DNA from: a virus
Taxonomy: Duplodnaviria; Heunggongvirae; Uroviricota; Caudoviricetes
Virus record (IMG/VR): IMGVR_UViG_2541047751_000017
Strand: one strand, 5' to 3'
DNA: 16,392 nucleotides
Under the pieces are notes generated by a model. It was not told the DNA's origin, searched no databases, and saw nothing but the letters and a program-made list of their open reading frames with translations. How positions within the stretch are numbered: position 1 is the stretch's first letter; every line of letters begins with the position of its first letter. This document shows, one piece after another, positions 1 through 15,971 of the stretch. The position numbers and the translations under genes were made by a program.

Positions 1-615
1 GTGAGCAGAAAAGATACTAAAGAATTGCTAACTATCTGCATGGTGTACTTTTCAATTTATTTTTGTGCATACATGATAGTCCCAGATGAGTTTGAACATG
101 GCAGTATTATTTATTCCATAACATTCTATTTTTTAGAGCTAACACCAATTTTGGCTATCCTTTTGGCAATACATATTTATTTTTCCTTAAAAAAAGAATC
201 GACTAATTGGGAGAAGGTATGGAGAGACAGAGGATTTCTAACATCACCTAAAGATGATGCATATGAGAGTGATTTTTCTGACTTTATAACAAACTACTAC
301 TCCAGCGAACAATTCAAAAATAGACTGTCTGATGTTTGGGAAACAGCAATGTATTCCATAGGGATTATATTATTGATACTTACTGGTATTGCTCAATATG
401 TTTTTAACATTGACTTATCATTAAATCCTGAAAATTTAATATCGCCATTGATTTTTGGTGAGATATTGATCTTCTCATTCGGAATTTTCTTGAGTGTTGT
501 TCTCTGCTCATTATGCAAGCTACTGACTAACAGGTATCCAGGTGAAGCAAGGAGAGCAAGAAAGGCAAATCCATATTATCTTTTATTTCCTAATGGAGAC
601 AGCAGAGATATCTAA
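1..615 (+). CDS. Hypothetical inner-membrane protein, 4 predicted TM helices; AT-rich cargo gene, possible superinfection-exclusion or abortive-infection factor
   Basis: 204-codon ORF in visibly AT-rich DNA where stops are frequent. Four hydrophobic segments at roughly residues 9-27, 40-63, 116-135 and 146-175. Track start is GTG at 1; an in-frame ATG at 40 is an alternative. Convergent with the 701-aa gene, 19 bp apart. Confidence 0.6.
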   Translation: MSRKDTKELLTICMVYFSIYFCAYMIVPDEFEHGSIIYSITFYFLELTPILAILLAIHIYFSLKKESTNWEKVWRDRGFLTSPKDDAYESDFSDFITNYYSSEQFKNRLSDVWETAMYSIGIILLILTGIAQYVFNIDLSLNPENLISPLIFGEILIFSFGIFLSVVLCSLCKLLTNRYPGEARRARKANPYYLLFPNGDSRDI

Positions 616-634
616 GCCATCCATGGCTAACCAG

Positions 635-2740
635 TTATTGAGCTTCTTTTTGTGATGCCTGTGCGACTCTGGTGAGCGATTGTGTGACCGTACTGATCGC
701 TCTGTCATATGCTGTGCTACCTTTTGGCGTATTTGCCAGACGTAACAAGGCATTTCGTATAACAGGGCTTTCGTATGCCTTCGCTGCTCCGCCTACGGCA
801 CCAGCAGCAGGAACAACAAACGCAGCCGTTTTTAGCATCCCCGCTAATACTGCTGCGTTTATGATGCCACCACCAACTAACAAACCATAAAGCTGCTGAC
901 CATTTAAGTTTTGAACGTTCGCTTTTGCCGCGTGTCTTGTATCGTTGAGGTATTTAATAACGCCGTCCAGTTCCTTTCCATGTACGCCTTTAAAGAAAGT
1001 TGCTGATTGCTTCCTGTTCCGGTGTAACGCATTAATAAACTTCTCAACACTGATATTTCCAGACGGATCAGTCGCCTTATCTACAGCATTCTGAACTATG
1101 GCTGCTCGTGCGTTTTGCCTACCATTGTCATCCAGAAGCCTGTAAAGCTGAGAACGTTCTGATGGGTTTTGGCTAAAAACGAGTTTTGTTACATCCTCAG
1201 GCGTGGCCTTGCCGCTGGCTATTGCCTTTTGAACGCGCGTTCTTCCCATCATGTCATTAAATTTAGACCATGAGCGATCAACCCTTGCCATATTAATGGC
1301 TTCGTCTGCTCCAAGATTTTTGGCTACGGCTTTTTTCATATCCGCCGTATATGCCTTGTAGATAATATCGCTGGCTTTCTGGAGCGTATCTTTATCAACA
1401 GTGTCAGATGACGCCATAAATCGCTTTCGAAGATCGGTTCTGTTTTCCCTCGCCAGACGCAGGTCATTTGGTCCGCTGGTGATATCGTCTTTAAATTGCT
1501 GCAAGACTTTTACCGCGGCTCTATCCTGAGATTTGCCCGGGCGGCTTAACACGGCAATCTGATTGTCGATAGCTTTTACCGTGTTTGAGAGATCGACAGG
1601 GGTATCCCCCATAGCGTCAATTATGCGGTTATATCGCTTTCCTGCTGCCTCAATGAATTTTTGTTGCCCTTTAGTCGCAGATTCATAAAGCTGTTTATCA
1701 GAAATGCCACCCAGACCATCGCTAAATGTTCTGACTAAATTTTCTCGTGCTTGTTGTTGATTCAGCCGATTCTTACCGGTTCCAAAAAAAGGAACTCTTT
1801 CGCCTAATGTCTGAGCCTGACTCTGCATAAAGGTTTTATCTTTTAGCATGTCACTGGTCATTAACGGCAGATTTCTTTCCGATGCAAAGTCGACAGCAGC
1901 CTTTGCTTCAGGCGACATATCACCACGAACAGCCCTCGAAACCGCACTCGCTGTATTTTCCAGCCCCTTACCAATACCACCAATGCCAGCAGAAATTACC
2001 GTTTGTAACGGATCAATATCTTCTCCACCAGCAAGGCTAGTGGCTCCCTGTAGTGCTAAATCTGTAGCTGCTGATTTTCCTATGGCACCAAGCACCGTTC
2101 CAGCCCTGCCCGCTGGTGTAAACGCCAGCGCATTAGCCAGAAACGATGCCACGTCTTGCGGCGATAAACCCGGCTTGTTCAGAGCATAATCACCGGATGG
2201 CAGGGAAACGATAGTGTTACCCTTCTCATCCTGCCTTAATTTCGCTCCCATGCTCTGAAGAATCTTTTCCTGAGATGCGTCAGAGCCGAAAAGTTGAGAC
2301 CATCGAGCTTTTAGAGCATCCATGCTGAGTGAGGTTAACTCTGGGGCAAGGTCGACATTTTGCAGTCTCTCCATCTCTGGAGTCATTCGGCTTTCGCCTG
2401 TTATAGCATCGCGCATCGCAGCCCCAAGACTGGCTCCCTGTTCTGCTGAACGCTCAAGCCCCTCTCTTTGCTGAGTAGCTAACTTTGCATACCCTGACGC
2501 AAGAGAATTATCAGATGATGTATGTTGAATATTTTGAGTTGCTGATTGGGATCGGTCTATTTCATTCGTTGATGGTAGTGGATAGGCAGCATAAAAAGCC
2601 TGCTTAGCCTGCTCTACACTTTCTCCGGCTTGCGAGGCCACGACTTCATTGAAGTATTGCTCCTGAGCCTGCGCTTTTTGTTCTGGTGCTAACGCCTGAT
2701 ACTGTGGAGAGGCGATAACATCTTTCCATGCTTTAGCCAT
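635..2740 (-). CDS. Putative phage ejection/DNA-transfer protein, P22 gp16-like by position and size
   Basis: 701-aa ORF, last gene of a coupled operon; start overlaps the stop of the 473-aa gene by 1 nt (TAATG). Ala/Gln-rich with a Gly/Ala-rich hydrophobic C-terminal segment (LVGGGIINAAVLAGMLKTAAFVVPAAGAVGGAA). Family assignment is from size, order and composition only. Confidence 0.5.
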   Translation of the reverse strand: MAKAWKDVIASPQYQALAPEQKAQAQEQYFNEVVASQAGESVEQAKQAFYAAYPLPSTNEIDRSQSATQNIQHTSSDNSLASGYAKLATQQREGLERSAEQGASLGAAMRDAITGESRMTPEMERLQNVDLAPELTSLSMDALKARWSQLFGSDASQEKILQSMGAKLRQDEKGNTIVSLPSGDYALNKPGLSPQDVASFLANALAFTPAGRAGTVLGAIGKSAATDLALQGATSLAGGEDIDPLQTVISAGIGGIGKGLENTASAVSRAVRGDMSPEAKAAVDFASERNLPLMTSDMLKDKTFMQSQAQTLGERVPFFGTGKNRLNQQQARENLVRTFSDGLGGISDKQLYESATKGQQKFIEAAGKRYNRIIDAMGDTPVDLSNTVKAIDNQIAVLSRPGKSQDRAAVKVLQQFKDDITSGPNDLRLARENRTDLRKRFMASSDTVDKDTLQKASDIIYKAYTADMKKAVAKNLGADEAINMARVDRSWSKFNDMMGRTRVQKAIASGKATPEDVTKLVFSQNPSERSQLYRLLDDNGRQNARAAIVQNAVDKATDPSGNISVEKFINALHRNRKQSATFFKGVHGKELDGVIKYLNDTRHAAKANVQNLNGQQLYGLLVGGGIINAAVLAGMLKTAAFVVPAAGAVGGAAKAYESPVIRNALLRLANTPKGSTAYDRAISTVTQSLTRVAQASQKEAQ

Positions 2741-4161
2741 TAATCACCCCATAGTGAAGAAAAGTTACTGCTGGCTGCTGGCTGTGATACCTGCTCAGAT
2801 TGCGGCAATGTCTGCGACGAAGAAGAAGTTCCTCTGTCAACTGCTGAAATAACCCGCAAAGCATCATAAGCTCGACCAGAAGCAGCTTTCAGCGAATTGA
2901 ACTGGTTTTCCATCTTCCGGCGCTTGGTATCAATGGTTTTTGTGGAGTCGCCAGGCTGAGGGAAATACATTTGATAATATTTTGACATTTCAGCAGGTAC
3001 GATGGCTGCCCCTGTTTCCTGACGGAGTATTGCCATTATTGCGTCATTAGCATTAACAACGTATTGCTGTTCTGTTGGGCTGAGCGTTAAGTTAGCCAGC
3101 GTCCCATTACCCAAAGCATTATTAATGATCGCCACTCGCTGTGGGCTAAGCTGGTCTTTCAGTGTATCTATTGAATCAAGAGCATCCCTAACCCTGTATG
3201 CAAATCCAGCAGCTTTTTTAGCCCCTTCTGGCGACTTTTCCATGATCTTTTGGGCTGTTGGCAAAGCTATTGGACGAAACCCATCTCCAGATATTGGCTG
3301 GTTTAGTTTTCCCTGCTCTTCACTTCCGTCTGTGTAGTATTTTGTGACAGTGCCATCATCGTTTTCTCTAACACTCATTAATTTTTTGGCGTTTGTATTA
3401 ATTCCAGCCGCTGCCGCAAATGCCGCCGCCCCCTCTGGATCCGCCTTTAACATTTGAGCGTACTGATTGTAATTCTGCATTGCTGCTGTTGGTGCATATG
3501 CTGACGTTAACGCATTTGCTCGGCTAATATCCTGCCCTCTCGCCTGAAGTGCTTCGCCAGCCTGATTGCTGCGGATTGTTTCTGCCAACTTGCCACGCTC
3601 AATATCCCGACCTTCCATTTGATCTTTGATATCGAAATACTTCTCATGACCGAGAGAAAACAGTGCCATACTACCAGCAAGCCGCTGGAACCCCTGTGGA
3701 TCATTAACATGCATTTCGGCAACAGACTCAGGAGAAATTCCCAAGCGACGCATTTCATCTTCGTTATCTGCTATGAATTTTCCAAATGCCCCAGTTCCGA
3801 GCGAAGATGCGATTTGAGCACTAGTCGCAAGATGACCAATAGAATTTCTCTGGTCGTCATCAATAAAGCCCATCCCTTTCTGAACGCTTTCAAATTCTTC
3901 TGGATACTCAGAAATAAGACTGCGCATTTTGTTTCTGTCTCCAGACTCAAAAGCCCCGGCATATGCTTTCTGAAACTCTGCTTTACGCTGTTGTTGACGT
4001 GCCTGCTGATTAATCTCAGCAACGCCTCTTAGCCCCTGTAGCGCCATTAAACCTACGTTTGGCTGCTGCTGATACTGCACAGGCTGAGGAACGGAAGAAC
4101 GAGGAGCATTATCATTTTGCGGTGCCATGCTAGGCAGCCCGCCAAGTTGCCATGTCGCCAT
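2740..4161 (-). CDS. Putative phage ejection/DNA-transfer protein, P22 gp20-like by position and size
   Basis: 473-aa ORF (P22 gp20 is about 471 aa, recalled from memory). 1-nt start/stop overlaps with both neighbours. Gln/Ala-rich, no recognisable catalytic motif. Confidence 0.5.
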   Translation of the reverse strand: MATWQLGGLPSMAPQNDNAPRSSVPQPVQYQQQPNVGLMALQGLRGVAEINQQARQQQRKAEFQKAYAGAFESGDRNKMRSLISEYPEEFESVQKGMGFIDDDQRNSIGHLATSAQIASSLGTGAFGKFIADNEDEMRRLGISPESVAEMHVNDPQGFQRLAGSMALFSLGHEKYFDIKDQMEGRDIERGKLAETIRSNQAGEALQARGQDISRANALTSAYAPTAAMQNYNQYAQMLKADPEGAAAFAAAAGINTNAKKLMSVRENDDGTVTKYYTDGSEEQGKLNQPISGDGFRPIALPTAQKIMEKSPEGAKKAAGFAYRVRDALDSIDTLKDQLSPQRVAIINNALGNGTLANLTLSPTEQQYVVNANDAIMAILRQETGAAIVPAEMSKYYQMYFPQPGDSTKTIDTKRRKMENQFNSLKAASGRAYDALRVISAVDRGTSSSSQTLPQSEQVSQPAASSNFSSLWGD

Positions 4162-4838
4162 TAGAATCCAAGCCCCCCAACAAGACCAATAAGCCCACCA
4201 CCAATAGCGCCGGCCGCAGTTCCTATTCCAGGAACAACGGAACCAAGTTGCGCACCCGCTAAAGCGCCTGATGCTGCCCCACCAATACCACGCGCAAGAC
4301 TGGATGGCTGCTGCGCCTGACCTGCACGAATAGCGCCAAGCCCCTGCAAGAGTTGTCCGGTATTATTGGCGTAGTTTTGCCCTGCCGTTGCCTGCCCTGA
4401 TGCCGCATTCATCCCGACATTTAGCAGGTTTCCATAATTTTGCATTTGCCCACTGAGCCAATTGTTATAAAGCATGGGCGCAATGGAAGATAACTGGTTA
4501 CTGGTAGCTGTTGAGCCAAGCCCCCCGGTAGCTTCTGCTGAGACAAGGTTCTGATAACGGGCCTGATCTGCCTGTGTTTTATATAAACCAGAACCAAAGA
4601 AATCATTCGCGGCTTTATTCTGCCCTTCCAGAGTCATCAGTCCTTGTAGTTGTTGTAAAGCAGGCAATCCGACTTCTGCATACGGCTTGAGATTATTCAT
4701 CACCGTATTCCACTGCTCGCGCTGCAAATCAATTGCCTGCTGCTGGGCCTTCGCCTGAGCTTTAGAGGCACCACCATCACCGCCTTTTTCGTATACGGCA
4801 CGATTGAGATGTTTATGAGCTATGTGGGTAATTAACAT
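4161..4838 (-). CDS. Putative phage ejection/DNA-transfer protein, P22 gp7-like by position and size
   Basis: 225-aa ORF (P22 gp7 is about 229 aa, recalled). N-terminal YEKGGDGGAS motif, Gln/Ala-rich centre, Gly-rich hydrophobic C-terminus (GIGTAAGAIGGGLIGLVGGLGF). Overlaps the upstream 153-aa gene by 7 nt. Confidence 0.5.
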   Translation of the reverse strand: MLITHIAHKHLNRAVYEKGGDGGASKAQAKAQQQAIDLQREQWNTVMNNLKPYAEVGLPALQQLQGLMTLEGQNKAANDFFGSGLYKTQADQARYQNLVSAEATGGLGSTATSNQLSSIAPMLYNNWLSGQMQNYGNLLNVGMNAASGQATAGQNYANNTGQLLQGLGAIRAGQAQQPSSLARGIGGAASGALAGAQLGSVVPGIGTAAGAIGGGLIGLVGGLGF

Positions 4839-5293
4839 TCGCTGAATTCCTTATATTGTTGCCGAGTTAACTGATAAAGCGTTACGCCGACGGGTTTACC
4901 ACATCTGATATAAGCATCATCAAGGTGACCAACACGGGTAGCGCCAAGCAAACGGATAATTGCCCGTCCGTATTTCGTGGTGTCAGGAACCATAGTAATG
5001 CTGTTAAGGAATGGTGAGTTTTCGAGAAGCCATTTGCAGAATAATCGATGCCCTTGCAGTGCATATTCACCACGGAATCCGGGGTCGTACACCGCATGGC
5101 ATTCAACAACGCTATGCCAGAAGTTACGCACTTCATGAACGCCAGCCAGCACTAATCCTTCGTAGATGCCGAGATATACCGCATCAGGCTTGATGTAGTA
5201 CGTGTGCCCCGGCTCAACAATATTTTCGGTATTGCCTGGCTCGTTAAGAAAGGCCTGTAATCGCACAGGGTTATCAATAAATTTTAGTTCCAT
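4832..5293 (-). CDS. Hypothetical protein, first large gene of the ejection-protein-like operon (P22 gene-14 position)
   Basis: 153-aa ORF with ATG start at 5293, protein-like composition, co-oriented and overlapping the next gene. Confidence 0.55.
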   Translation of the reverse strand: MELKFIDNPVRLQAFLNEPGNTENIVEPGHTYYIKPDAVYLGIYEGLVLAGVHEVRNFWHSVVECHAVYDPGFRGEYALQGHRLFCKWLLENSPFLNSITMVPDTTKYGRAIIRLLGATRVGHLDDAYIRCGKPVGVTLYQLTRQQYKEFSEC

Positions 5294-6055: not shown

Positions 6056-8815
6056 TCATTCTTCAGATGAGTTATAATCTCCTGGCTGGTAATTGAGTAC
6101 ATAAACGTTTATTTGTCGTCCCTGAATACGTGGTGATTTTCTTTGGTATCCACGACCGCTGTTTGGTGGGGTTAGCATCCCGGCTTTTTTCAACACTTCA
6201 GCAAACTGTTTTGCGTTGAAACCACATGCGATCTCCTTTTCAAATGTGGCCGGGAATGTGTAGAAAATCATTGGGCTTTCGTCATGTTCTCCACGCTGAC
6301 GGTATCCGGCTAAATCTTTGATGGGCAAATCTGCCGGGCTGTATGGAAATGGTGCAAAACGGCTAAGCCCATAGGCATTAAGAAATGCCTCCGTTTGTTC
6401 AATAATCTGCTGATGCTCTTTGTTACCTGTGCCGAACTCACGCAACCATGCGTTATAGCTGTGCTGTATCGCATCACGGCATGTCTGAGCATCCCAGCCT
6501 GTTACAACCTCGCCTAACAACAATGCGGCCTCCAGAATGGCAAATCGCGCGGCTACACGGTGAACCTGCTCACCATAATCGGATGGGATCAGGCTTCTCC
6601 ATCTGCTTTCGCAATCACGAACGGTTTTAATAGCCTGTTGCTGGTGGTCTGCCAGCCATTTAATCCACTCACGCCCGGACGCGCCGTGGTGATGCTGGTA
6701 AGCGTCTTTCAGTGCGTCTGCGTGCTGTTTTCCGTTCTGGTAATCGTGAAAGCGTACTGCTTTACTCAACGGAATATTCAGCAGTCGCACCAGTTGCCCG
6801 GCTTTGGTTTTTCGCCCGGAAGTAGCGATAAATGTTTCTAAATCCATTTCTCCGGTGCTGATTGCCACTGTACGCCAACGTTTTAGATCCCGGTTTCCAC
6901 CATCTTTAGCGCCTTGCAGTTTCCCTACACCGTTAAATAACGCATAGGCAGACTGTGAAACGCTGACAGGATCAGCGCCCTGACCAACTTCATCAAGCGG
7001 CATTAGTCCGTCATTGTGGGCGGCGGCCTCATTTGCCAGCCCCAGCGCGGTTCCGTACCACGTCAGCCGCAGTAAATCAGGGTTGCCGTATAAGCTGCTC
7101 GCCACGTTTGCCGTGGTGGTCTTACCTGCGCTCGACTGCTCATAGAAATGAATGCCGAACCCGTCAGCGCCCACCAGCCCAATCAATGGCGCTGCCAGTG
7201 CTGCGCCGATCCCGGTCATCATTGAATAGTTACCAAAGGCCAGACGCGCCACGTTATCACGCCAGCTTTTCGCGCTCCCTGAGACGGTATATCCGGCTGC
7301 GGCTGAGCTTCTCCCGCTGAACAGCACAGGATTTTCAGGTGTTCCGATGATTTCCCCATCAGGCATGATGTACGCTCCGCATTGCCAGCCAGTGGCATGA
7401 GCAACACGCCACAATTCACGAGAGCCACTGCGTTGTAGCCAGTCTGCCAGTATTGCTCTGAGGCTGCTTTTGGTCGTGACATTTACCCCACCAGCTTTAA
7501 GTGTGCGCCATCCTTCACGTTCACCAATATCAGCCAGTGGAATGGCAGCGGTTGTCGGCGTTTCAGAACCAAACGACAGCCAGCGAAGAATGAGATACTG
7601 GTCTTTATCGTCTCTGCCAGTACCGATAACGCTTAACGGAGAACATAACCAGCTTTCGTTATTGATGATTTCTCCACTCTGGCTGTCAGCTCTCGGAGAT
7701 ACCCAATAAATACCATCCTCGCGGCTTTCTATTCTTGGTTTCAGTGGGTCGGTATCCATAACCTTAAAATCGCTTCCCTCAATGGTCTGTGGCTCCTGTT
7801 TCACGCCATTACCCTGTGGTTGGTACATTGACTTATTGAACGCTTCTGTGGCGCATTTAATGCCGTGTTTTTGGTGGTAATCATTCCAGTCTGCTTTGTG
7901 ATCTGTCGGGGGTAATGCCACCCATCCAGAAACAGATAAAGCTGCTTTTTCTGCTGCTATTCTCCCCGTGTTTTGTCTTCCTTCGCTGTGGTCGTTATCC
8001 GCAGCAATGATGATTTGTGCTGAAGGAAATTTATCCCGCAGTACCTGGGCGACATATAACAGGTTCCCGGCATCAATCGCCGCCACTGTCAGCGCCTCTG
8101 GACGAATTAAATGGGCAGATAATGCCGTTGCCAGCCCTTCTGTAATTAAGATGCTCTGTGTTGTTTCTGGCGCGTTTATGGCGTGATATGCCCCCCGCTT
8201 TGCTGAACCTCTCAGGAGTCTTTTTTCACCATGTGAGGTAATAGTCTGTGCTGCTGTGACTGCGCCGGATTTATCCACCAGCGCCAGCAACAGAGATCCA
8301 TCGGGCAACACGGGGAATGTAAAATCACCTACCCCTTTCGCAACCAGATAATCAGATTTGCCGTTTACAGCCTTTCTGCGCATGTCATCAAACTGACGGG
8401 AAAACGTATCCCGTCTTTGTTGTTCGTCCTTCTCTGCCCTTTTCAGGCGCTCCTGTTCGCGTCGCTGGCGCTCGGTTTCCAGTTGTTCCCGTTTCTGGCT
8501 GGTGGCTTCTGGTGTTTCCGTTGTCCGGTAATCAATACCCAGAACATCAGCGGCAAGAAGCGCCGCCTCTGTTGTGTCGCAGTTATTTACGCGTTTAATT
8601 AAATCCAGCCCATCACCAGCGCCGCACTGATTACAGATGAAGCTACCGCGCCCGTTGTCATCGAACCGGAATCGATCTTTGCCCCCACATGCAGGGCAGG
8701 GAGCATGACGGCGCGGAGAGTCAGGGACATTTATGTTCAGGCAGCCCAGCACATGAGGCCAGTTGTTTTCAGACGCACTGATAACCTGACGGATAAGATC
8801 AATGTTTCGCATCAC
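6056..8815 (-). CDS. Primase-helicase, P4 alpha-like (zinc ribbon, TOPRIM-type primase domain, P-loop NTPase domain)
   Basis: 919-aa ORF. N-terminal CPACGG...CNQCG zinc-binding motif, ITEGLATA (EGYATA-like) and AADNDH TOPRIM-type motifs, Walker A SSAGKTT, charged coiled-coil linker (ERQRREQERLKRAEKDEQQRRD). Track start is GTG at 8815; ATG at 8812 is an alternative. Confidence 0.85.
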   Translation of the reverse strand: MMRNIDLIRQVISASENNWPHVLGCLNINVPDSPRRHAPCPACGGKDRFRFDDNGRGSFICNQCGAGDGLDLIKRVNNCDTTEAALLAADVLGIDYRTTETPEATSQKREQLETERQRREQERLKRAEKDEQQRRDTFSRQFDDMRRKAVNGKSDYLVAKGVGDFTFPVLPDGSLLLALVDKSGAVTAAQTITSHGEKRLLRGSAKRGAYHAINAPETTQSILITEGLATALSAHLIRPEALTVAAIDAGNLLYVAQVLRDKFPSAQIIIAADNDHSEGRQNTGRIAAEKAALSVSGWVALPPTDHKADWNDYHQKHGIKCATEAFNKSMYQPQGNGVKQEPQTIEGSDFKVMDTDPLKPRIESREDGIYWVSPRADSQSGEIINNESWLCSPLSVIGTGRDDKDQYLILRWLSFGSETPTTAAIPLADIGEREGWRTLKAGGVNVTTKSSLRAILADWLQRSGSRELWRVAHATGWQCGAYIMPDGEIIGTPENPVLFSGRSSAAAGYTVSGSAKSWRDNVARLAFGNYSMMTGIGAALAAPLIGLVGADGFGIHFYEQSSAGKTTTANVASSLYGNPDLLRLTWYGTALGLANEAAAHNDGLMPLDEVGQGADPVSVSQSAYALFNGVGKLQGAKDGGNRDLKRWRTVAISTGEMDLETFIATSGRKTKAGQLVRLLNIPLSKAVRFHDYQNGKQHADALKDAYQHHHGASGREWIKWLADHQQQAIKTVRDCESRWRSLIPSDYGEQVHRVAARFAILEAALLLGEVVTGWDAQTCRDAIQHSYNAWLREFGTGNKEHQQIIEQTEAFLNAYGLSRFAPFPYSPADLPIKDLAGYRQRGEHDESPMIFYTFPATFEKEIACGFNAKQFAEVLKKAGMLTPPNSGRGYQRKSPRIQGRQINVYVLNYQPGDYNSSEE

Positions 8816-10993: not shown

Positions 10994-11842
10994 GTGCCAC
11001 CTCCATGCGGATACGACCAGCAAAAAAGCAGACGTGATCGCGCACCAGAGAACGGCGAGCATCGCGTTCAGACTCGGCAGCAATATGATGAATTTTGGCG
11101 GTAATTGTCGGGCAATCGCGGCGAACTGCGGCGATAATCCAGATAAATTGCGGTTTTTGGGTAGGGGTAGTAGCCAGCATGTGGCAGCCTCCATTCGATA
11201 GCATGTAACGCTACCACCGGAAACGCCAATTTCGCTGGTGGTAGCCCAGACAGGGTTGGCGTAACCGGCTCGAATGGATACCGGCGCTTCCGAAGAAGCC
11301 CCTGCCTGAGCCACCATTGATTGACAAAGGCGCTGGATTATACACCAACGCCCAAAAAATGGGTGAGTCAGACCTACGACATAAAAAAAGACGCTCGGCG
11401 CGTCATATGTCGCCATTCGATTTACCAGGACGCCAATCCCGGCACCCGTTTTATGAGGTGCCTTATAACCATAAACCGTGTTGCCGCATAACGGCAAGCT
11501 CTTTTTTATGGACTCCGAAAACTCACTATTGGAAGAACCAGAAGCACAGTACATCGCGCTCATTTCGTTAACGTCACGCGCGTGGACGAAGGTTTTTGTG
11601 GAGTCACTACGCGAGCAGAGAAAGCCATCTACGACCAGAAATTCTCTGGCGCAGCCGCTGACCTTCTCAACGCTAACACCATCGACCGTAATTTCTGACA
11701 TAGTTAAGGCATCCGCTCCTACCACCAGCAAATGATAAACTTTGCTTGTATCTGCTGTATTAATGCCTGACTTTGCCGTCATATTGCTGGATTTTGGCGA
11801 CATACCAGCCAGTGAAAATGTCTTCTTCTGGGCGGTTAGCAT
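10775..11842 (-). CDS. Alternative long form: 355-codon open frame from a strongly initiated ATG at 11842; possibly a fused or frameshifted gene
   Basis: ATG at 11842 has GGAGG at 7 nt and overlaps the stop of the upstream 60-aa gene. The frame stays open for 355 codons, but residues encoded between about 11000 and 11250 are Trp/Cys-rich and not protein-like. Confidence 0.25.
11208..11245. promoter_or_regulatory. Inverted repeat GCTACCACC / GGTGGTAGC with 18-nt spacer, possible RNA stem-loop or operator
   Basis: Perfect 9-bp arms at 11210-11218 and 11237-11245; no adjacent U-run, so not a classical terminator. Confidence 0.25.
11481..11508 (+). terminator. Plus-strand terminator-like hairpin, antisense to the main operon
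   Basis: Stem TTGCCG (11481-11486) / CGGCAA (11492-11497), 5-nt loop, 4-nt spacer, then T6 (11503-11508). A TTGACA hexamer sits at 11321-11326 without a well-spaced -10. Confidence 0.25.
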
Positions 11843-12018
11843 TTGTTAACCTCCGCGAACTCCTTCATGAAACGTGCCAGCGGTTGTACGCATGGCGATT
11901 GATACCCGTCGCGATAAAACGTCACTCGGTTGTGAGACACGCTTTCGACAGTAACGAGTGCTCCGTGGGCATCTTTGTAGCGTTTTTGAGGTTGTGGTGT
12001 TCCTGTCGGCTTAAACAT
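11836..12018 (-). CDS. Hypothetical small protein (60 aa from the ATG overlapping the antirepressor stop)
   Basis: ATG at 12018 overlaps the stop of the 277-aa gene (ATGTTTAA arrangement). The track ORF extends upstream to 12105, but that extension overlaps the preceding gene. Confidence 0.45.
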   Translation of the reverse strand: MFKPTGTPQPQKRYKDAHGALVTVESVSHNRVTFYRDGYQSPCVQPLARFMKEFAEVNKC

Positions 12019-12844
12019 GGACCGCCTCCAGACGCTTGGCGAGCCAGCGTTGCGACAGGCGGGTGAGTTCTCCTTTACGCTGCTCATATTCCATGCCCAT
12101 ATCAATTAACGTGATATTGGTGCTTTCGAGATATGAGAGGTGCTCAAGCTGTTCTGCGTTCATATGGTCGCGAGGTTCGCCAGAATAGCCATTTATCCGC
12201 GCCCACTGCTTAGCAGTTAGCCCACCAAGAACGATACGAGAAATCATATTGCTCTCGTTTGTGTAGTGGTGTTGCTGCGTCGTTTTACCCATCTCGGCAC
12301 GGGCCATATTCAGCGCATCGCACATTGGCTTAAAGTTGTTTGCGGCACTGATACGGGCTTTTAGCTGGCGACGATAGCGGGCGGCGATTTCAGGCACGCT
12401 ACGCTGTAATTCTTCCTCGCACTGGATGAAATAACGGCGGATAGCGCGCCCCTGATCATTGCGTTCGATCATTGCCAGTTCTTTCGCCATTCCGACACTT
12501 AACAGATAGTCTTTGCCGGGTCTGCCAGACTGCTTAATCTTGCTGTAAGCCGCGTCATTCGGGCTTTTCCCCAAATTTGGGGAAATTGTTTTATGGACTG
12601 AGTAATCGTGCCCAATGGTGAAGTCATATTCAGAGATGCGATCAGTGATCCATGTAGAGAAGTCTTTTCCCACGCCCAACGCTTTGTGTAACGCTTTTGC
12701 GCTAACAATATTGGTTTCACGCCCACCGATATGACCAGGAATAACCGGGACAATTGCGGCAAATTCATTACCGTTAATTGTGCCCAGAGAGGCGTTCAGA
12801 TGAGGGGCGGCCTCAGAAATTAATCTGCTTTTTTCGATGTTCAT
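12011..12844 (-). CDS. Phage antirepressor-like protein, AntA/AntB N-terminal domain type
   Basis: 277-aa ORF; GGAG RBS 8 nt upstream. N-terminal segments SAKALHKALGVGKDFSTWITDRISEYDFTIGHDY and DYLLSVGMAKELAMIERNDQGRAIRRYFIQCEEEL match, from memory, the conserved AntA-domain pattern of phage antirepressors. Confidence 0.65.
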   Translation of the reverse strand: MNIEKSRLISEAAPHLNASLGTINGNEFAAIVPVIPGHIGGRETNIVSAKALHKALGVGKDFSTWITDRISEYDFTIGHDYSVHKTISPNLGKSPNDAAYSKIKQSGRPGKDYLLSVGMAKELAMIERNDQGRAIRRYFIQCEEELQRSVPEIAARYRRQLKARISAANNFKPMCDALNMARAEMGKTTQQHHYTNESNMISRIVLGGLTAKQWARINGYSGEPRDHMNAEQLEHLSYLESTNITLIDMGMEYEQRKGELTRLSQRWLAKRLEAVHV

Positions 12845-14586: not shown

Positions 14587-15846
14587 TTACTTTGCCTTTC
14601 TGATAGGCGTCACGTTGTAATCTTCGCCCTTCTCCAGAGCCACCAGCAAGCCCGCCCACTGTGTTAACGCAGCCCGGCGCTCGTCAAAGTATTGGTGACG
14701 GTTATAGATACCCTCAACGCCTTTTATGCGGTGATTGAGGCATCTTTCAGCCACTACCGGATCAACGCCCAGCGCTGCTAAATGAGTACGTGCGGTGCGT
14801 CGGAAGTCGTGAATCGTGAAATTAGGCACATCCGGCATTTCGGCGCGAACCTTAGCCAGTGCTACGGGTAAAGTGCTTTCCTGAATATGTGGAATCATTC
14901 TGTTTTGCATCTTCCTGGCCGGAAGCACCCATGCGCTATTACATGAAAAGGTGTGTAGCTCTCTCAACCATTCAACGGCTGGGGAAGGTAGAGGTATATC
15001 AATAGGGTCTCCGTTTTTGCTGCGTTCTTCCGGCAAATGCCATACCGCACCATCTAAATCAAACTCTTCCCATCGTGCGGCGCATAACTCCATCTTACGA
15101 ACGCATAGTGCCAGCAATAGCTTAAATGTCAGTTCGTTTTGGCGGCTGAATCCTTTTGCGGTGCGCATAGCCTCGAATAGCCTGATAAGCTCATCGCGAG
15201 TTAGCCAACGGTCGCGGGAAACCTCTTTACCACCAGCATCAGATACTTCAAACGCTGAACAAGGGTTTATCTCCAGAGCGTGGCGTTTTATCCCATAGTC
15301 AAAGATACGGCGTGTCCAGCGTAATACATCTGTTGCTATCGTTGGTGCTCCTCGGTCAACGATACCTTTCAACATGTCGTCAATGTGGCGTGGCTTAACG
15401 TCCTCTACCTTCATATGCCCAATGCAGGGGTTAATATCCTTATCAATTCTCCGGCGAAGGATATCGGGATGTTTCCATCTCGGAAGTATCTGTCGCTCGA
15501 AGTATTCGGCGGCCAGATCTGAAACGCGCATGGCGTTTTTCTCAGCCTCCATTTTTGCCAGTGCTTCAGCTTTTCGTTCCTGTTTTTCTGCTGCTACGTC
15601 ATAGCCAAGAGCAACTCTGGCTGACAGCTCTTTTGCTGTTTCTCTGGCTTTTGATAGTGACAGTTCGGAGTAAGAGCCGATAACCATAGCCCGCTGTTTT
15701 CCTGCGAGCTTATATCGGAATCGCCAGAACGGGACTGTGTAGTTTTTGGGGTAGCAAATATAAAGGCCGTTGCCGTCTGCCTTGCCATCAAATCTGTCTC
15801 CCGCCTTTATCCATGCGCGGATCTGCATATCTGTGAGTTTTGGCAT
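14587..15846 (-). CDS. int: Tyrosine-type site-specific integrase, P4-like (N-terminal arm-binding domain plus catalytic domain)
   Basis: N-terminus LTDMQIRAW...DGNGLYICY...WRFRYKLAGKQRAMVIGSY fits the P4-type integrase N-domain pattern. C-terminus carries HDFRRT (H-x-x-R) and GIYNRHQY (tyrosine nucleophile region). Start placed at ATG 15846 (MPKL...); the track ORF begins 28 codons upstream. Confidence 0.9.
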   Translation of the reverse strand: MPKLTDMQIRAWIKAGDRFDGKADGNGLYICYPKNYTVPFWRFRYKLAGKQRAMVIGSYSELSLSKARETAKELSARVALGYDVAAEKQERKAEALAKMEAEKNAMRVSDLAAEYFERQILPRWKHPDILRRRIDKDINPCIGHMKVEDVKPRHIDDMLKGIVDRGAPTIATDVLRWTRRIFDYGIKRHALEINPCSAFEVSDAGGKEVSRDRWLTRDELIRLFEAMRTAKGFSRQNELTFKLLLALCVRKMELCAARWEEFDLDGAVWHLPEERSKNGDPIDIPLPSPAVEWLRELHTFSCNSAWVLPARKMQNRMIPHIQESTLPVALAKVRAEMPDVPNFTIHDFRRTARTHLAALGVDPVVAERCLNHRIKGVEGIYNRHQYFDERRAALTQWAGLLVALEKGEDYNVTPIRKAK

Positions 15847-15875: not shown

Positions 15876-15926
15876 TGTACATAAAGCAATGTACATGAAA
15901 GTCATTATGTACACCTCTATGTACAC
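15876..15926. repeat. Four direct copies of TGTACA(Y) upstream of int; putative integrase arm sites or int operators
   Basis: TGTACAT at 15876 and 15890, TGTACAC at 15909 and 15920, all in the same orientation within 50 bp just upstream of the int start. Confidence 0.4.
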
Positions 15927-15971
15927 GCATATTGTGCGCTTTGTTGCGTCGTTATGATAGCTCATGATAAC

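Follow-up and report, generated by a model that had tools for sequence, protein, structure and literature searches.

The gene at positions 1–615 of the window, by which we mean the whole 16,392-nt stretch of DNA analysed here, probably encodes a SieA-family superinfection-exclusion protein that would block the delivery of P22-like phage DNA at the inner membrane; we put the probability of this reading at roughly 0.7. As judged by sequence comparison, its 204-aa product is a very divergent member of the SieA family. The function of the SieA proteins of phage P22 and of the Escherichia coli HS1 prophage is the most likely one for it, because the homology extends over the full length, the predicted topology is the same and the gene is likewise linked to gene 16. 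The gene is mobile and accessory. In E. coli, it is carried by an island of ~18 kb rather than by a P22-like genome, and of the genes of such phages this island has only 14, 7, 20 and 16. The features of the window are as follows.

1–615, + strand: complete SieA-like coding sequence, 204 aa, predicted four-helix membrane protein (open reading frame; identical to WP_000087355.1; SieA homology; 33% GC)
616–634, no strand: 19-nt spacer between convergent stop codons, the downstream boundary of the exchangeable cassette (sequence)
635–2740, − strand: homologue of the P22 gp16-type ejection (DNA transfer) protein, 701 aa (phrog_770, E = 7.8e-161; PF26808)
2740–4161, − strand: homologue of the P22 gp20-type ejection protein, 473 aa (phrog_917, E = 4.8e-112; PF16928)
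4161–4838, − strand: homologue of the P22 gp7 ejection protein, 225 aa (PF25688 P22_gp7, E = 6.6e-73)
4832–5293, − strand: P22 gp14-like protein (DUF2824), 153 aa (PF11039, E = 1.5e-61)
6056–8815, − strand: Zn-ribbon/Toprim/DUF927 primase (Pfam; RefSeq annotation of L003 and L004)
11579–11694, + strand: isolated piece of a P22-type small terminase gene (gene 3) that covers the pac region (megablast; alignment to P22 gene 3)
14587–15846, − strand: tyrosine integrase (RefSeq, L003 19587–20846; open reading frame in the window)
15904–15927, + strand: att-like 24-nt repeat on the integrase side (second copy of the direct repeat in L003; once in the window)

The PF26808 (Phage_P22_gp16) and PF16928 (Inj_translocase) assignments are precomputed annotation, that of PF26808 being taken from identical loci.

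A complete, AT-rich gene that opposes its neighbours

The 204-codon open reading frame starts with a GTG at window base 1 and ends with a stop codon at 613–615 on the + strand. Its upstream context was taken from L003, a near-identical locus in E. coli CX21 whose coordinates equal those of the window plus 5000. There, the sequence AAGGGGG, a good Shine-Dalgarno match, lies five bases upstream of the GTG, and an in-frame TAA is found eight codons 5′ of it with no alternative start codon in between; on these grounds we regard the frame 1–615 as complete. An open frame of 204 codons would arise by chance at the composition of this gene with a probability of ~1e-7. RefSeq lists the same 204 aa (WP_000087355.1) as "hypothetical protein".

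The first-pass annotation had described the gene as very AT-rich and as opposite in orientation to everything else, and both descriptions hold. Its GC content is 33.0%, versus 48.0% in the remaining window and 47.2% in the adjacent gp16 gene, and it is the only + strand gene that RefSeq annotates in L003 over the span of the window, all others being on the − strand. The AT-richness is a trait of the family: the sieA genes of P22 and HS1 have 33.7% and 36.3% GC, respectively, beside gp16 genes of 47–50%.

A consensus scan of the 800 nt upstream of the gene found no promoter-like site, and scans with Rfam and with promoter and terminator consensus sequences over 800–2300 nt upstream gave no match. 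A 23-nt motif, CGCGCGCGTAyTkGTCrCrAAAT, occurs in three copies upstream of the gene and outside the window (L003:2879–2901, 4509–4531 and 4794–4816), two of which fall in a conserved non-coding stretch of 520 nt 5′ of the gene. The palindrome TTGCAAAACTTTTTGCAA is found there too. Both the motif copies and the palindrome are possible regulatory sites.

Homology to SieA

The sieA-like identity that had been read from position and hydrophobicity is supported by family, pairwise and profile comparisons and by shared motifs. The PHROG family 7745 ('superinfection exclusion SieA-like') matches residues 91–186 (E = 4.4e-4). BLASTP aligns the protein to P22 SieA with 29% identity over 108 aa (E = 8e-8) and to the type B SieA of E. 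coli HS1 with 34% identity over 118 aa (E = 2e-9), and both alignments end in a shared NRYPGEA motif (P22 sieA was taken from NC_002371; HS1 sieA is EcHS_A0321, identified by its position in NC_009800). Profile–profile alignment with hhalign, in which three sequences of the protein's own clade (from E. coli, Citrobacter freundii and Serratia fonticola) were compared to a set of ten from types A and B and Morganella, gave a probability of 98.9% and an E-value of 1.4e-17 across 181 columns, which is nearly the full length. Taken together, these matches relate most of the protein to characterised members of the family, at a global identity of only 15–22%.

Two segments, YS.E..NR.SD and RYPGEA..K, are conserved across three genera at 38–50% overall identity. 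The residues invariant across 13 family members are Ser101, Asn107, Arg108, Asp111, Arg178, Tyr179, Pro180, Ala183 and Lys188; Glu182 is replaced by glutamine in two metagenomic sequences of the 13-sequence family alignment. The published SieA signature near the C-terminus is FxRYPxEAxxFNK (PMC10883804). The equivalent segment here, TNRYPGEARRARK, keeps R, Y, P, E, A and K, that is, six of the nine specified positions, and differs at F, F and N.

Searches of Pfam, NCBIfam and PADLOC with the protein returned sub-threshold hydrophobic matches or none. The Pfam copy that was searched lacks a SieA model, as P22 SieA itself finds no match there. In precomputed annotation, the Pfam SieA family PF26849 is present on every type A or type B match longer than 106 aa and absent from the clade of the present protein (P0001–P0003). 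Matches to an MnhB-type antiporter, DUF1634 and CRPA were rejected as sub-threshold hydrophobic-helix noise; those to MnhB-type models in Pfam and NCBIfam (E = 0.018 and 0.061) fall well under the curated cut-offs. The homology search proposed alongside the first annotation has thus returned SieA relatives, and no homology to a housekeeping membrane protein was found in Pfam or NCBIfam.

Predicted membrane topology

The four hydrophobic helices claimed for the 204-aa protein are recovered in a Kyte-Doolittle profile, in which hydrophobic segments span approximately residues 9–27, 37–59, 116–137 and 148–172, and in the AlphaFold2 model (mean pLDDT 69.5) these four stretches are covered by long helices. 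Lys and Arg residues number three at the N-terminus, eight in the 56-residue central loop and seven at the C-terminus, and none are found in the two short loops. This distribution predicts that both termini face the cytoplasm, so that the topology prediction that had been suggested yields four transmembrane (TM) segments in an N-in/C-in arrangement. A protein with three to four TM helices and a conserved cytoplasmic motif is typical of the SieA family, and the predicted topology has both features.

The YS.E..NR.SD segment is located in the helix entering TM3 and the RYPGEA..K segment just after TM4. Both regions are the most confident parts of the AlphaFold2 model (pLDDT 79–88) and, given the N-in/C-in assignment, both would lie at the cytoplasmic face of the membrane. 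A Foldseek comparison of the model to BFVD gave no match better than E = 1.7, and a sequence search of the PDB found no relative of solved structure.

A fourth type of SieA

Three types of SieA were described by Leavitt et al. (2024), with E. coli and Salmonella carrying type A or type B (PMC10883804). Type C is found in Providencia, Morganella and Proteus hosts. Sequence relationships place the clade of the E. coli protein as a fourth type, here called 'type D', because its members are 15–22% identical to types A and B and the Morganella sequence, and branch outside all of them (identity matrix and neighbour-joining tree). In the tree, the 203-aa Morganella morganii protein P0069, which we take to represent type C, falls together with types A and B, and the type D clade lies outside all three. 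Besides the E. coli protein, only two members of this clade were found: P0003 of C. freundii (204 aa, 50% identity to the E. coli protein) and P0185 of S. fonticola (201 aa, 38–42% identity, depending on the alignment).

Features in common with P22 SieA, which is of type A and has 162/164 aa (Leavitt et al. 2024, PMC10883804), are the motifs YS.E..NR.[ST]D and RYPGEA..K, the final two TM helices, a predicted cytoplasmic C-terminus and an AT-rich gene that converges on gene 16. Unlike P22 SieA, to which it is 17% identical globally, the E. coli protein lies outside any P22-like prophage, has ~30–40 extra N-terminal residues with an additional TM helix and ~9 extra C-terminal residues, and carries T and AR at the F and FN positions of the signature. 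The extra N-terminal helix is shared with types B and C, both of which have it along with a cytoplasmic motif (PMC10883804). The best characterised relative is the type B SieA of the HS1 prophage (212 aa), which excludes P22-like phages experimentally (PMC10883804). It resembles the E. coli protein in its four helices, its N-terminal extension, the sequence NRYPGEAR and the slot after gene 16. In contrast to HS1 SieA, the E. coli protein has neither the N-terminal GWRF motif nor the C-terminal SSKEFR tail found in type B, the two are 18% identical globally, and the gp16 encoded beside the E. coli gene shares only 30% identity with HS1 gp16. The presumed type C representative P0069 is similar in length (~203–204 aa) and in having the N-terminal extension, and shares 22% identity. 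T4 Imm and HK97 gp15 are other small inner-membrane proteins, encoded by phages or prophages, that stop genome delivery after adsorption by way of the injection apparatus. No search detected a sequence relationship between either of them and the E. coli protein, and they act on other phage types with other ejection machinery.

The family as a whole is much larger than the three published types. A search for SieA-like proteins gave 265 cluster representatives at 50% identity, mostly metagenomic proteins of ~170 aa with a TGRYPGEAK motif; in a large clade of these, the motif reads TGRYPGEAKxxRK. The 90%-identity cluster of the E. coli protein holds 260 member sequences on 387 contigs, and truncated or fused variants also occur in it (P0004, P0032 and P0033). 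Across 13 copies of the gene that were compared, all of them full length and with an intact frame, four synonymous changes and one non-synonymous change were distinguished.

Among 5,426 complete E. coli genomes, 419 carry this gp16 type, and 100 of these 419 also have the SieA-like gene. The gene is hence present in ~1.8% of complete E. coli genomes, and about three quarters of the carriers of the gp16 type lack it. Neither megablast nor tblastn found a match to the gene in 50,697 phage records, from which we conclude that no sequenced phage in that set carries this SieA clade. Scans of species-representative genomes with clade-specific peptides and with back-translated TNRYPGEARR found the gene absent. 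A scan of IMG/VR returned three E. coli contigs, and the open reading frames listed for two of them correspond to the same island. All copies examined are carried by mobile elements.

The gene occupies the sieA slot on an integrative island

The stop codon of the SieA-like gene (613–615) is 19 nt from that of the gp16 homologue (635–637, − strand), and the two genes converge, as stated when the gene was first placed immediately beyond the gene-16 homologue. A consensus scan of the intervening spacer (616–634) found no terminator-like site. The gene of the SieA family typically follows and opposes gene 16, between genes 16 and 9. The E. coli gene follows and opposes gene 16 on an island that has no gene 9, and in C. 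freundii the homologue is flanked by gene 16 and the mnt/arc/ant/tailspike genes. There, the order of genes is coat, gp4, gp10, gp7, gp20, gp16, the convergent 204-aa gene, mnt/arc/ant, tailspike and integrase; the homologue thus lies in a genuine P22-like prophage, at the canonical place of sieA. The earlier statement that the gene sits where P22-like genomes carry sieA therefore stands for the slot itself, and for the C. freundii homologue, but not for the E. coli element, which is an 18-kb island.

According to Leavitt et al., SieA resides in a P22-like prophage in 'all cases examined' (PMC10883804). Such residence was found for the C. freundii homologue and in none of the 12 E. coli contexts that we examined, all of which are the island with primase and integrase and have no capsid, portal, terminase or tailspike gene. 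We conclude that residence in a P22-like prophage is a habit of the SieA family and not inherent to the protein, and that the published view, in which E. coli SieA is of type A or B and always located in P22-like prophages, is incomplete.

The genes of the island are, in order, the integrase, an HTH protein, AntA, DUF4222, Ash, small open reading frames and a Toprim primase of the DUF927 or DUF5906 type. Next come gp14, gp7, gp20, gp16 and the SieA-like gene, then a stretch that varies and a regulator of the PerC family. The SieA-like gene is at the end of the island in all 12 E. coli contexts, and three or more chromosomal settings of the island were seen. In L003, the island is flanked by direct repeats of 24 nt at 2771–2794 and 20904–20927, 18,133 nt apart; the first of these, the partner of the att-like repeat in the window, lies past the PerC gene, where the window no longer extends. 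Among the island open reading frames searched, none encodes a capsid, portal or tail protein or a complete terminase, and the primase is not a P22-like replication module. The gp14-like gene has the same place as P22 gene 14, upstream of gene 7. The island gp16 is 30% identical to P22 gp16 and 76% identical to that of the C. freundii prophage, and the island gp20 is 30% identical to its P22 counterpart.

Several parts of the island vary among its relatives. The ejection module differs among the sister islands L013, L016, L019, L001, L010 and L017: some have a gp20 of 478 or 488 aa followed by a 57-aa open reading frame, without the gp7/gp14 pair, and some of these add a 152-aa open reading frame. 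The DUF927 and DUF5906 primase types alternate between sister islands, and the gp16 gene of L015 is disrupted by IS66. In the window, the C-terminal half of the AntA-domain protein (12011–12844, − strand) matches the PADLOC candidate defence family PDC-S22 (E = 4.3e-11).

An exchangeable cassette

Comparison to E. coli 042 (L004) reveals that the SieA-like gene can be replaced as a unit. The slot in 042 (L004:5613–6002) holds an unrelated 129-aa hydrophobic open reading frame in a near-exact swap from the start region to the stop; this frame resembles neither SieA nor any family in PHROG or PADLOC. The exchanged segment corresponds exactly to the body of the open reading frame (L003 5005–5614 versus L004 5656–6000), and the 500 nt upstream are common to L003 and 042 at 96%. 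In addition, the match of many islands to the window starts only at base 615–617 (base 615, the last of the gene, is L003 5615). The swap in 042 and these matches together identify the SieA-like gene as an exchangeable cassette, and a precise replacement of one open reading frame by another behind a shared 500-nt upstream region suggests that the slot is expressed. Between islands with and without the cassette, gp16 is 98% identical. The first codons of the 042 frame (MIAILN...) persist as an out-of-frame relic of 19 codons 5′ of the SieA-like gene.

The variable stretch beside the slot contains, in sister islands, either AbiD (E = 2.7e-57) or a CapP-like M78 peptidase with a 125-aa partner, and the distal (PerC/att) end of the 042 island (L004:1575–3058) encodes PDC-M59A and a Doc toxin. 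Given these contents, we consider the end of the island to be a defence hotspot; it resembles the variable defence-gene hotspots of P2 and P4. An unassigned 318- and 145-aa pair is found at the same end among the sister islands. The loci compared were L019:8167–9129, L011:8188–9051, L013:7765–9171 and L004:1575–3058.

A pac-region fragment of gene 3

Antisense inside the Ash open reading frame, the island contains a fragment of 116 nt with 86–88% identity (megablast) to the pac-containing part of gene 3 of P22-like phages. Only approximately residues 88–125 of gp3 are kept, with a stop codon directly after, and the window has no further gp3 sequence according to a tblastn search. Nine island copies of the fragment are conserved at 88–100%, and its pac 22-mer is unlike that of P22 at six of the 22 positions. 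A pac-like core, GTTTTTGTGGAGTC (15 nt with the preceding G), at 11592–11605 recurs at 2936–2949 in the gp20 gene on the same strand; the 14-mer was absent from all 200 shuffled sequences, yet an exact 14-nt repeat in 18 kb is not very improbable.

The island is an integrative element with an integrase, att-like repeats and a primase, as a satellite would be, and looks like an undescribed satellite of P22-like phages. It shares with P4-like satellites and PICIs an integrase, its own primase, regulators of the Ash/AntA type, the lack of capsid, tail and terminase genes, a putative fragment of a helper-type packaging site and one end at which defence genes are concentrated. It differs from them in carrying the P22-type ejection genes 14, 7, 20 and 16. 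To our knowledge, genes for P22-type ejection proteins are not among the core genes of described satellites, and no homologue of psu, delta or sid was found among the island open reading frames searched. A literature search found no description of a satellite with P22-type ejection proteins.

Proposed function

P22 and HS1 SieA are located exclusively in the inner membrane and are each sufficient for exclusion; they block DNA injection and K+ release, and do so for P22-like phages only (PMC10883804). Escape mutations map to the C-terminal regions of gp16 and gp20, the two targets in P22, types A and B have indistinguishable specificity, and P22 SieA excludes P22 itself (PMC10883804). By analogy, the product of the E. 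coli gene would be a small inner-membrane protein with four TM helices, whose N-terminus, central domain of ~55 residues and basic C-terminal RYPGEARRARK segment would be cytoplasmic. It would stop incoming P22-like podophages at the step of DNA delivery, probably by interfering with the assembly, opening or function of the trans-envelope conduit formed by the incoming gp20 and gp16, and would leave adsorption and later phage growth unaffected. We infer in this way the inner-membrane location, the expression from the island, the block at DNA entry and the kind of phage excluded. The target specificity of P22 SieA is not transferable to this protein, since the island gp16 and gp20 are only 30% identical to those of P22; at the P22 escape positions (338, 341, 348 and 350 of gp20 and 546 of gp16) the island proteins are too diverged for the alignment to be informative. 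As a counterpoint, the SieA-like gene is dispensable to the island, as evidenced by its presence in only 100 of the 419 genomes with this gp16 type and by the unrelated open reading frame in the 042 slot. The low global identity to characterised SieA proteins, the three altered positions of the signature, the absence of PF26849 from the annotation of this clade and the lack of a promoter-like site upstream weigh on the same side.

Alternative explanations

Two related proposals concern the role of the island. The broader one is that it represents an undescribed family of satellites of P22-like podophages that is packaged via the captured gene-3 pac fragment, supplies its own, very divergent ejection proteins gp7, gp20 and gp16 to hijacked virions, and closes the envelope to helper-type or rival particles with a SieA-type cassette; we regard this as unlikely. 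The narrower one, which we also consider unlikely, is that the SieA homologue serves such a lifestyle as the lock of a lock-and-key pair, excluding helper-type virions and competing satellites while particles with the island's divergent gp7, gp20 and gp16 escape. Besides the integrase, the 24-nt att-like repeats 18.1 kb apart, the primase and the Ash/AntA regulators, it is consistent with the fact that all identified virion genes are those of the ejection module (14, 7, 20 and 16) and with the retention of an isolated pac-region fragment in nine copies. The SieA-like gene moreover abuts the genes for the proteins that SieA targets in P22 (PMC10883804), and its clade co-occurs with a distinct gp16 (76% identity between E. 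coli and C. freundii versus 30% to P22). However, gp16 does not co-vary with the cassette at the level of islands that have or lack it, between which it is 98% identical. That P22 SieA excludes P22 and that types A and B have the same specificity indicate that type-matched locks and keys are not the rule (PMC10883804). The divergence of the pac 22-mer from P22 at 6/22 positions and the lack of any such satellite in the literature searched also argue against it.

That the gene is a silent or functionless hitchhiker, captured with the 14-7-20-16 block from a P22-like prophage and now being lost, would fit its absence from most islands with the same gp16 type, the lack of a detected promoter upstream, the truncated or fused variants P0004, P0032 and P0033 and the IS-disrupted gp16 in some islands (L015). 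We nevertheless judge this very improbable, as at least 13 independent copies keep the whole frame intact and differ mostly by synonymous changes, the motifs persist in three genera at 38–50% identity, a good Shine-Dalgarno sequence is present, and the exact replacement in 042 behind the shared upstream region suggests an expressed slot. Least probable is a membrane protein that plays no part in phage entry, for instance a subunit of a transporter, an effector of the holin or toxin kind or a housekeeping protein. The sub-threshold MnhB-type antiporter matches (E = 0.018 and 0.061) are all that speaks for it, and these are hydrophobic-helix noise, whereas the SieA homology is significant at the profile level. 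Such a function is also difficult to reconcile with an accessory gene that is present in ~1.8% of complete E. coli genomes, absent from the species-representative genomes scanned and carried on mobile elements in all copies examined. A SieA-family exclusion protein remains the preferred reading.

Implications

Few defences are known that act when phage DNA enters the cell. SieA is among them, and its effect on the gp20/gp16 conduit has so far been described only as a model. The gene itself would represent a known mechanism in a new clade that is unannotated in databases. As a fourth, much more divergent clade, it narrows the residues conserved family-wide to the YS.E..NR.SD helix and the RYPGEA..K segment, which may guide mutagenesis, and its pairing with a gp16/gp20 type that is 30% identical to that of P22 offers a natural contrast for studies of specificity. 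Approximately 1.8% of complete E. coli genomes carry this fourth type of SieA on a satellite-like island with its own ejection proteins. If the satellite reading is true, the island carries both a 'key' and a 'lock' for DNA entry, and the specificity between SieA and ejection proteins would be testable in a natural two-component system.
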